Source: Paraspadella gotoi (taxonomy: Eukaryota; Animalia; Chaetognatha). Taken from it: DNA of 64,000 nucleotides. Position numbers and translations under genes: made by a program. How positions within the stretch are numbered: the first letter of the stretch is position 1; every line of letters begins with the position of its first letter. The stretch covers positions 1,301,576-1,365,575 of the forward strand of contig JBJCIZ010000028.1 of NCBI GenBank assembly GCA_051294375.1, read 5' to 3'. The notes below the pieces were generated by a model. It ran no database searches and was not told the origin of the DNA. It saw only the letters and a list, made by a program, of their open reading frames with translations. This document shows, in pieces, positions 233-57,700 of this stretch.

Positions 233-3087
233 CTCCTTGGACTCGACGGATCCTAACAGATGCCCGCATCTGTCGTTGAATTTGTGGCCAAAGGAGAGCC
301 AGTCCTTCTCGATGAGAGCCTCGATGCCGCGAATGGTTCGGTAGTGAGGATCGAGCATCACTTGGGCCAAGGAACAAGTCTGGGCCGTTCGATCCCAACC
401 GTCTTTTGAGTCGTTGAGGGGGGAAAAACAAATTTCATGTTTTTTTGTCATTATTACTTCTAGACATTATTACTCCTTAAAATATAGGGAACTATGGCAA
501 CGGGAGGATAGCCTGTGATACCCGGGGCGCGGGGTATCTCACCAACTGGCGTAGGGGCTGCGGACCCTCAGTGACCGCCTCCTGTCACTGGCATGTTTAT
601 ACCGGCACCGTCACATTTTAAGCCAGAACCGGGATACCCAGGGATTGAACCCGGGACGCACGGATGGAATGAGATGATTTAGCCTGCTCAGCCATTGAGA
701 CGAGGCTGAGGACGGACAGCAGTGAGGCAGCTTTAAGTCTTGCTGCCACAGAACAATTAAATAAAGTGTTAAACGGTAATAAGCATTGAGAAAAAATAAT
801 AAGTAATAATATTTTTTTTCAGAAAATTCACTAAAACGAAGTGTTACAAATTTAACAAAATCTTTCGCGATATTTGTTTACCATACCCGCCCACATTTGG
901 CACACACGACCACTCACTACCCACACGACCACACACTACCCACACCCGCCTTAACCTGAGCAGTGGACGAGAACGGAGACCCGCTCGACGGCGACGGCGC
1001 GGGCGATGAAGGCCGACGTCTTGAGGATGGCCTGGATGTGTTTGAGCCAACCCGTAGAATCCACGCCCGACAAATAACCCGACATCGTCGGCTGGAGAGA
1101 CTCCAGCTGCTCCAGAAGCTTTTGAAGACTGGAGCGCATGACGTGGATGTTCTCCACACCTGTGGATGAAAAGGGAAAAGAAAAATGATGGAATAAGAAA
1201 ACGTGTAAGTGGTAAAATAAAATTAAGATTAATGAAATTAATATTACCAATAGGCTATAGTATAAAATATATTCATTCGATATATGTAGGCTCTCTAGCC
1301 TCGATTTGGGTAAAAGCCTATGTTCCTCCCTTTAATCTCATGTGATAAAATGGTAACTGTAATGAACTGTTATGAACTGACCGGAGAACTTAAACTTGAT
1401 ATCCCTATAATTGTCTTCGCTCTCGTATCCTTTCCCCGACGCCCGATTCGCCATCGCGTTGATCTTGGGTCTCGTGTCCACGACGTACATAAACTTGGAG
1501 TCAGGATTCGCCCGCAGGATGATCTGCAGCAGCGTCTCATCCTCGACGCTGCGTTTCTGGAATCCTGACAGCGGCTGGCTGCTGCGGCAGATGGCGGACG
1601 CGGCGTCGCTGTGGAGGTAGGTCAGGACGGGGAGTCGACCTTTGGATCTGGAGTTGAGAAGGATATGGGGAATGAGAGAGAGAGAGAAGAGAGAGAGAGA
1701 GAGAGAGAGAGAGAGAGAGAGAGAGAGAGAGAGAGAGAGAGAGAGAGAGATCTTCACACCTGAAACCGGCGCTGCCGGCGAGGATGCTTCCGGCGGCGGA
1801 GGTAGGGACGAAAAGGTGGCGCGGGTAAGTGGGAGTCAGTTCGTAATTGTAGTTGATGTCTGCATCGGGAGATGGCGCTTATTATAAATATCTATTATTA
1901 TCCCGACAAATTTATTGAATTCCTCACCGCTGAGTTTCCAGAACTCGTTGGGCACTCCCATCCGCTCATACTCGGATCGAAGATCGAAGAAGTCCCACCC
2001 GTGTTGCTTGACCAACAGCGGGTCGTTGGAGTTGTAGGAGAAGGCGTAAAGTTCTGAGAAGACGCGGGGCTTGGAAAGCTTGGTCAAGGAGACAACCATC
2101 TCGTGGCACTCGCGTTCTGCAACAAGGGGGAATTGCTTGGTCAAGGAGACTATCATCTTCTGACATTCGCTTTTAAAGTAGAGAAGAATTTGTCTGGTCA
2201 AGGAATCGACTCCGAAATGGAAGACCCATATCTTGTACTATCATTTGCATTCTGAGCAAGGGTAGTTTGCTTGGTGAAGGAACTACTATGGAGTGAGAGC
2301 CCTAAAAATATAGGACTTGATTAAGGAAACAATTGTATTTTATTGCAGTCCTGCTCTAAAAGGGGACTTTGTTTGGTCAAGGTGATTATCATCTCATGAG
2401 ATTACCTCAGCATATTTTTGCTTGGTCAATGGTAAAGAAAAAAGCTTACCTCTTGGAATGATGAAAGTGAGGGAAAGAAAAGTCTTGCACTTAATGATCA
2501 TGGGGCATCCCTGAGTCGTGAGGGGAAGTTTCTCCACCGACTCGATGTGCATCAACAAGATCCACGTCTCGGGTTTCGATCTGCGGGCGAATTCAATCCA
2601 ATCAGTTGCAAAAAGTAAGTTAAAGTGAGGAAATCCAAGAGAGAGGATGGTTATTTTATCCTGCCACGCCCATTTCAGCTGACGGAAGCAGTTCGCTTGA
2701 AAACATAAGTTTCATTATCACTCAACATTGCGAAAATAAGTAATTCTAATCAACGCCGTGCCCAAAAAAAACAATTCATTACAAATGAGATTATCGTTTG
2801 CCATTATTAATAATTATCAATTGACTGAAATAAAAAACTGGTAAAGTAATACAATGATAACTATAAATAATTGGTAATAATAATAAAGAAATAAAAACCG
2901 ACCTCTGCGAATCGACGTAAATGAGGTGGGTTGTCGTCAAGTACAGAGTCCCGACCGAATCGCCGTCACGAGCGGCGCTCATAAATCGCGCCGACGACGT
3001 CGACGACGCCGCGGAGGAACCGGCGCCGGCGTTGAGCCGATCCAAGAGCCGGACGTTGTCCACTTTGGGCGTCGTGATGTGATCCAT
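233..3087 (-). CDS. MTMR6: Myotubularin-related phosphoinositide 3-phosphatase, MTMR6/7/8 subfamily (multi-exon, 3' end beyond window start)
   Basis: Exon peptides [67 protein letters not shown], and the catalytic [11 protein letters not shown] split by a GT-AG intron (donor ~956, acceptor ~406). The symbol stands for the MTMR6/7/8 group. Confidence 0.92.
493..750 (-). mobile_element. Family B tRNA-headed, twister-bearing short element
   Basis: Minus strand reads TGTGGC...TTGCCATA, flanked by GAAC/GAAC (489-492, 751-754). It has a 5' hairpin GGCAGC/GCTGCC, an A-box-like TGGCTGAGCAGG and a B box GGTTCAATCC. Similar to the copies at 3974 and 19520. Confidence 0.75.
546..626 (-). ncRNA. Type-P5 twister ribozyme-like motif
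   Basis: CTGGC-ttaaa-ATGT-GA-CGG-TGCCGGTA-TAA-ACAT-GC-CAGTGAC/GTCACTG-AGGG-T-CCG-CA-GC-CCCT-ac-GCCAG. P5, P2, P3, P4 and both pseudoknots can pair. Confidence 0.75.
1674..1750. repeat. (GA)n microsatellite in an MTMR intron; similar tracts at ~3840, 26893, 61853, 63514 and 63813
   Basis: Direct dinucleotide run. Confidence 0.95.
2070..2435 (-). repeat. Degenerate ~50-60-nt tandem copies of the MTMR exon 3 start inside the preceding intron
   Basis: Exonic ATGGTTGTCTCCTTGACCAAGC recurs in degenerate form at ~2137, 2193, 2269, 2316, 2371 and 2420. Confidence 0.7.

Positions 3088-57700: not shown

Follow-up and report, generated by a model that had tools for sequence, protein, structure and literature searches.

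A stretch of 64,000 nucleotides (nt) from the chaetognath Paraspadella gotoi (contig JBJCIZ010000028.1, positions 1,301,576 to 1,365,575 of the forward strand; hereafter the window, numbered from its first letter) contains two families of short repeats, A and B, in which a tRNA-like segment with an RNA polymerase III (Pol III) promoter signature is followed by the fold of a type-P5 twister ribozyme. A third family, C, carries the same fold in a different setting. Our best model, held with moderate confidence, is that A and B belong to a Pol III-driven long terminal repeat (LTR) retrozyme of animals. The preliminary description of this DNA had put forward a candidate new retroelement class. However, tRNA-like segments in LTRs (PMC10886601), ribozymes in LTRs (PMC4918200) and Pol III promoters joined to hammerheads (PMC6765202) are each published (here and below, literature statements refer to the accessible parts of the papers cited), and what we describe is a new combination of these known parts, not a new class.

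The type-P5 twister fold in these repeats is real. This ribozyme type was reportedly described by Roth et al. in 2014. Six copies of the three families share the permuted order P5-P2'-GA-T1'-P1-UAA-P2-T2-P3-P4-U-T1-AA-T2'-P4'-P5', that is, P2 and P4 with the termini in P5, which matches the published type-P5 layout of stem order, GA, U^AA, two pseudoknots and L4 (RF02684; PMC5408937). Nine copies had been named as sharing this core; it is whole in six of them, while those at 19520, 22905 and 35725 are internally deleted. Likewise P5, proposed for all copies, is found in five, as the copy at 56837 lacks its 5' strand. A descriptor in P5 order finds the six motifs at -612..553, +4110..4170, +16758..16812, +36791..36845, +42301..42340 and -56884..56846. 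With descriptors written after the sequences had been seen, and with copies inside one family not independent, the loose version gives 6 matches against a mean of 0.91 and a maximum of 5 in 100 shuffles, and is weak alone since shuffles reach 5 matches, whereas the version requiring P5 gives 5 matches against a mean of 0.15 and a maximum of 2 in 60 window shuffles. On 5000 element shuffles the P5-required version matched once for B493, once for B3974, never for A16638 and three times for C42287. A B box followed by twister anchors was matched three times in the window and not once in 100 shuffles.

Pairing is kept while the sequence changes, as had been claimed. When the six motifs are aligned (six related rows, so that the figure is not a probability, and with P2 left out because it falls out of register), 53 of the 54 cells in T1, T2 and P4 hold a pair and both sides have changed in six of nine pairs, with compensatory changes in P4 and both pseudoknots; controls with slid partners fall to 17-50%. 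The pseudoknots T1 and T2 alone pair in 30 of 30 cells, and each has one pair changed on both sides. The variants reported earlier are all present: CGG/CCG or TGG/CCA and GC/GC or AC/GT in the pseudoknots, and AGGG/CCCT, CCTGA/TCAGG or CCTG/CAGG in P4. T1 and P4 covary also between the two family B subfamilies. The conserved GA, U^AA and L4 bases are kept, except that B493 has CA for the L4 consensus AA, and the U^A position predicted earlier for B493 (599/598) agrees with the modelled fold.

Public reads bear on one damaged copy. Contigs of four runs were mapped to the window, and at the two sites that break P2 and P4 in B3974 the pairing letter holds 82% of the depth of run X1 at 4130 (96% including wobble) and 99% at 4169; all four runs show this tendency. 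Since most of the read depth has pairing letters, the breaks are best seen as later mutations of one copy. Run X9, one of the four, is read as RNA on the basis of its spliced contigs: they join exons, several intron bins have no depth, and sequences of families A, B and C are present. These families thus appear to be represented in RNA, for which the contigs give neither strand nor ends.

The proposal that the units of families A and B are LTR-like is borne out by their ends. They measure 234-259 base pairs (bp), start with TG or TA and end with CA or TA, and the read contigs of the four runs stop sharply at 493, 750, 3974, 4232 and 35881, beyond which they continue into unlike flanks. In each DNA run, the ends at 493, 750 and 4232 have 30-76 loose-ended contigs apiece, and the end at 35881 has 93-134. 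In summed depth the units exceed unique flanks thousands of times over (this is not a copy number); both families are clearly abundant and occupy many insertion sites. Among the six copies with definable ends (B22905, whose ends are uncertain, was left out), a 4-bp target duplication is exact in three (B493, A16638 and A36670), agrees in three of four letters in two and in two of four in one. The chance of three exact duplications is ~1e-5. Furthermore, in three of the four runs there is a contig that runs from 488 straight to 751, four letters being shared; it represents the empty-site allele of B493 and marks a polymorphic insertion. In the reads, the low-agreement flank consensus starts with ATAT beside family B ends; behind the family A end it starts with GTAG, and this may reflect a target preference.

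A short 5' hairpin opens all seven A and B copies, and its pairs covary between the families. Behind it, a B box is found in four of the seven, exact in B493, B3974 and B19520, and an A box with no or one mismatch lies upstream of it in B493 and A16638. A tRNA-like head had been assigned to both families; A16638, B493, B3974 and B19520 show it clearly, the copy at 22905 and family C do not. In A16638 the tRNA-like domain folds and the twister begins 3-4 nt after it; ARAGORN called no tRNA. The sense strand carries no run of four T in six of six copies. The units begin 35-50 bp before the tRNA-like start and end without a poly(A) or simple-repeat tail; a terminal inverted repeat is absent from family A and is short and imperfect in family B. 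A tRNA-derived short interspersed nuclear element (SINE) was rejected on the start ahead of the tRNA-like head, the lack of a tail and the short fixed duplication. By these sequence features, A and B fit solo LTRs of a Helenus-type terminal-repeat retrotransposon in miniature (TRIM).

Family C had been counted as the same kind of element, and this did not hold: it has no A or B box, a fixed 3' end (250-401 loose ends at 42401 in three DNA runs) and 5' extents that vary in the reads. Back-joints from 42401 to 42198 and from 42401 to 42297 reveal partial tandems. The variable 5' side also led us to reject an inverted-repeat element at 42040-42401. Truncation at the 5' end with partial tandems has been described for Penelope-like elements (PMC8557442), and the pattern of family C matches their tails, yet is not specific to them. 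No reading frame could be linked to family C, and no frame combining GIY-YIG and reverse transcriptase was identified in the window. Family C is a separate repeat, probably a non-LTR Penelope-like tail, and a possible donor of the A and B ribozyme. It adjoins or lies inside another high-depth repeat (41859-42135) that starts with a T run and contains an inverted repeat and a GTCC-type microsatellite. We take the latter to resemble Helentron-associated (DINE-like) elements.

Table 1. Copies of repeat families A, B and C in the window and the features mapped on them.
Feature	Position	Strand	Details
B493, family B, solo-LTR-like	493..750	-	258 bp, ends TG...TA
B493 target duplication	489-492 and 751-754		exact, 4 bp
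B493 tRNA-type promoter (predicted)	641..694	-	A box 694-683, B box 651-641, no mismatch
B493 type-P5 twister fold	546..626	-	predicted cut U599^A598; P1 is an 8-nt palindrome
B3974, family B	3974..4232	+	259 bp; B box 4074-4084; target duplication 2/4
B3974 twister fold	4096..4179	+	P2 and P4 damaged; predicted cut U4123^A4124
B19520, family B	19520..19688	+	B box 19612-19622; target duplication 3/4
B22905, diverged family B relative	22866..23060	-	ends uncertain; no clear A or B box
A16638, family A, solo-LTR-like	16638..16871	+	234 bp, ends TA...CA, exact 4-bp duplication
A16638 boxes in tRNA-like domain	A 16679-16690, B 16723-16733	+	one mismatch each
A16638 twister fold	16746..16819	+	predicted cut U16769^A16770
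A35725, family A	35725..35881	+	77-nt deletion, B box to P3; duplication 3/4
A36670, family A	36670..37512	+	exact 4-bp duplication at true ends
A36670 twister core, whole	36779-36851	+	predicted cut U36802^A36803
C42287 repeat, family C	42136..42401	+	3' end fixed at 42401; variable 5' end; neither A nor B box
C42287 twister	42287-42349	+	predicted cut U42312^A42313; P1 is a perfect 6-nt palindrome; RF02684 25.8 bits
C56837 copy, family C, 5'-truncated	56811..56892	-	core 56884-56846; same 3' end; RF02684 25.5 bits

The individual copies differ in their preservation and surroundings (Table 1). B493 probably lies in an intron of a myotubularin-related gene and on the same strand, as judged from the Pfam match of a nearby minus-strand exon. 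B3974, ~72% like B493 across the aligned part, is antisense within an intron of an EF-G-like gene. Introns of the PP2A scaffold gene hold both A16638, on the same strand as the gene, and B19520, in which an internal deletion has taken out the twister from T2 to P5'. A35725 lies within an importin-13 intron. B22905 keeps the 5' hairpin, P5, P4 and L4 but has lost P1, UAA, P2 and T2. Nested in the 3' part of A36670 is a high-depth repeat of ~610 bp with short inverted ends (~36881-37490), probably a non-autonomous DNA transposon.

If A and B are Pol III-driven LTR retrozymes, Pol III would start at the tRNA-like domain of the 5' LTR and meet no run of four T within the LTR. The twister would cut at U^A in both LTRs, releasing a unit-length RNA which, as the same site is cut in both, would have no terminal repeat. 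A host ligase could then circularise this RNA, as proposed for plant retrozymes, and a Gypsy-type reverse transcriptase and integrase could copy it from the primer site and insert the product with a 4-bp duplication. Solo LTRs might arise through recombination or from short reverse transcripts. These steps are drawn by analogy from the retrozyme model and from the Gypsy helpers inferred for animal Helenus.

The P1 segment adds a further possibility. Between T1' and the predicted cut it is 6-8 nt long, and the P1 hairpin of type-P5 twisters is missing, in that no intramolecular hairpin is predicted. Instead, the segment is fully self-complementary in five of seven copies, spread over all three families, with duplex energies of -8.3 to -10.9 kcal/mol in four copies; with wobble pairs allowed, 14% of random central 4-mers would be self-complementary. 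Because P1 is a loop-less palindrome, the twister may cut as a dimer, and modelled in this way the two LTR ribozymes on one transcript probably pair and cut together. Dimer-dependent hammerheads are described in Penelope-like elements and in amphibians (newts) (PMC7761336). Three whole-core solo copies stand on the sense strand of host genes, and such copies would cut poorly and be nearly silent in host introns because the partner LTR is absent. On the other hand, the palindrome is broken in two of seven copies, and dimer gating may not apply at all because P1 is dispensable in tested twisters (PMC5408937). We offer only tentatively, as doubtful rather than probable, the fuller reading of an animal LTR retrozyme with its own Pol III promoter and a palindrome-armed twister that cuts only when two LTRs pair.

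Several observations weigh against the LTR retrozyme model more generally. All seven A and B copies in the window are solo, with no full-length element, internal region, primer-binding site or polypurine tract; no two LTRs surround a short internal region in the window or among the joints and loose ends listed from the reads, and no joint of an LTR end to an LTR start occurs among 15 of 79 and 15 of 693 read joints. Three of the six target duplications are imperfect. The end of A36670 was shifted by one base after the nested repeat had been recognised, and the family A end is not fully certain since, in two runs, the same four letters open the consensus behind 35881. The lack of four-T runs is a weak argument, as the opposite strand has only four of them in six copies. 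As for the fold, the covariation is based on six related sequences only, the minimum-energy folds of whole B493 and B3974 do not contain the twister (pseudoknots being outside the model), and B493 folds barely better than its shuffles (z -1.5). A scan with the Rfam Twister-P5 model had been proposed as a check. It retrieves the family C copies, over the full length of the model (RF02684, threshold 37.6 bits), at 25.8 and 25.5 bits, below threshold (E-values 0.32 and 0.38 in the window scan, 0.0014 in a 271-bp scan), and gives no twister match for B493 or A16638 at E up to 10. Since the scanned A and B copies escape the Rfam model, ribozymes of this sort are probably under-counted in animal genomes. 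Finally, no twister is seen in the Helenus consensus LTRs examined from the supplement of PMC10886601, including those of wasps and zebrafish; six L4 motifs searched across that supplement also gave no twister, although line breaks can hide a motif and the fungal parts 2-4 were covered by the motif search only.

Alternatively, A and B might be normal Helenus-type solo LTRs with an acquired twister, whose source could have been a Penelope-like tail such as family C. In that case the ribozyme would only trim the RNA end or serve as a terminator, normal strand transfer would follow and no circle would form. The terminal evidence is the same as for the retrozyme model, the genome has a second, abundant repeat of comparable design that bears a twister, and no circular junction was seen in the contigs. 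We nevertheless regard capture as unlikely: cuts in both LTRs would leave no terminal repeat for strand transfer, and the fact that two unrelated LTR families and two B subfamilies all retain the pairing points to long selection. More unlikely still, in our view, is that A and B are self-contained and never had an internal region, being either SINE- or retrozyme-like RNAs with a non-LTR or Penelope-like helper or a short DNA transposon making 4-bp duplications. Against this stand two fixed ends with 4-bp duplications and no poly(A) or simple-repeat tail, a unit start that precedes the tRNA-like domain by 35-50 bp, and the missing inverted termini of family A. Such an element would have in its favour that only solo units are seen, that the Schistosoma Pol III hammerhead repeats are SINE-like and that family B has a short imperfect terminal inverted repeat; if real, it would be stranger than the retrozyme model.

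The fold could also be a dead relic or a non-catalytic twister-like structure, as the sub-threshold or absent Rfam scores might indicate, together with a P1 that cannot form within one molecule, a P2 of only 3 bp in families A and C, and whole-core copies sitting sense in host introns. This we judge very improbable, because both pseudoknots, L4, the GA and the A just 3' of the cut have been retained, with compensatory changes, the core is whole in a copy with an empty-site allele (B493), and P1 is dispensable in tested twisters.

The window itself is gene-dense animal DNA with short introns, and Pfam matches identify myotubularin-related, EF-G-like, PP2A scaffold, importin-13, GET4 and gamma-tubulin complex genes. 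Bystin is 70-78% identical to the bystins of assorted animals, and a query with importin-13 gave no match. Comparing the window with itself returns the same repeat groups that had been named before. Small gaps relative to the reads at 19860-19900 and in several homopolymer runs, and what may be a broken frame in a PP2A exon, point to indel errors in the assembly that could affect single-base details of A16638 and A36670. Apart from the three families, a 5'-truncated tRNA copy ending in CCA lies on the minus strand at 10835-10906 (Rfam tRNA, 52.6 bits) with an exact 13-bp direct repeat on both flanks; it is a tRNA retrocopy, presumably of Lys identity. Two further regions (20577-20695 and 26883-27022) contain a long near-perfect hairpin and GA/CT microsatellite arms. 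Their identity as microRNAs, at 20580 and 26890, was rejected in view of Rfam matches below threshold, the long hairpins and the microsatellites.

LTR retrozymes have been described from plants, with hammerheads and an unclear promoter, while Helenus has a promoter and no known means of setting its RNA ends. An element with both would make it possible to test directly, in animals, whether LTR retrotransposition can run through circular RNA, and would give eukaryotic twister ribozymes a natural role. Dimer gating, if true, would mean that this ribozyme class can operate in a new mode, one of possible use in RNA engineering, and would be a built-in switch by which huge numbers of solo LTRs in introns spare the pre-mRNA. 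If the fuller, dimer-gated reading is true, then together with the hammerhead seen by eye in Synergus Helenus LTRs (described below) it would mean that Pol III TRIMs have repeatedly taken up self-cleaving ribozymes and move via circular RNA.

Among known systems, Helenus (TRIMp3) is one that A and B closely resemble: its LTRs contain tRNA-like A and B boxes, its animal members make 4-bp duplications and leave solo LTRs, and Gypsy helpers are inferred for them (Kojima 2024, PMC10886601). Like A and B, it has short LTRs with TG/TA...CA/TA ends and several families per genome; sequences were compared with the published consensus LTRs by eye. Helenus LTRs mostly have, by eye, a T-rich stretch soon after the tRNA part, whereas A and B have a ribozyme of 75-85 nt and no run of four T; Helenus also has an internal region, and none was found for A and B in the window. 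In the accessible text of that study 'twister' is absent and 'hammerhead' appears in a reference only. Two of its consensus sequences from the genus Synergus (Helenus-2_SyJa-LTR and Helenus-2_SyUm-LTR, Data S1) show by eye, after the tRNA-like boxes, a type III hammerhead core with CUGAUGA, stem II, GAAA, a GUC site and a long complementarity between loop I and loop II, which is not mentioned in the accessible parts of the paper; these LTRs may be unrecognised Pol III LTR retrozymes.

Searches for the combination elsewhere gave no convincing counterpart. No LTR element with a tRNA promoter and a twister was found in the open-access literature, to which subscription papers and closed supplements may add, and the terms 'twister' and 'tRNA' are absent from the accessible part of a 2026 preprint on animal retrozymes (10.64898/2026.07.22.740005). 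The family B twister motif had no matches in metagenome contigs, and B493 had none in phage records. A pattern of B box plus twister gave 120 loci in 12 of 64 collection parts, of which three pass the loose descriptor, with poor stems and none convincing; one locus with two pattern matches (L043) was set aside as a repeat with a 30-nt period, unrelated to the element.

Other elements share single features with the repeats described here. Twister variants occur at the 5' end of Perere-3/RTE non-LTR retrotransposons (PMC8501958, PMC7761336), which are thus animal retrotransposons using a twister as A and B do, but they are autonomous long interspersed nuclear elements with a P1 completed by the flanking target and with neither tRNA head nor LTR. 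The minimal hammerheads of Penelope-like elements resemble the twisters of A, B and C in having a stem too short to close; in the hammerheads a second copy rescues it, as one may do in the twisters (PMC7761336). They are hammerheads and not twisters, and Naiads are reported to be without canonical hammerheads; Naiad and Penelope-like elements share with family C the 5'-truncated partial tandems (PMC8557442). Relative to the type-P5 twister itself, the copies here differ in the loop-less P1 palindrome of 6-8 nt, a P2 of 3-4 bp and, in A and B, a long P3. The SINE-like repeats of Schistosoma place a self-cleaving hammerhead after a tRNA-type Pol III promoter (PMC6765202; PMC4918200), but this is a type I hammerhead, and the repeats are tandem and non-LTR, lacking LTR ends, a primer site and a polypurine tract. 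In plant LTR retrozymes, which are non-coding, the ribozyme sits inside the LTR; target duplications are 4 bp long, solo LTRs are numerous, and circular RNA has been shown (PMC4918200; PMC7761336). Theirs is a type III hammerhead with no Pol III promoter reported in the accessible sources, whereas A and B combine a predicted twister with tRNA-type boxes. Overall, families A and B resemble Helenus solo LTRs in appearance and, by analogy with these systems, would act as LTR retrozymes.

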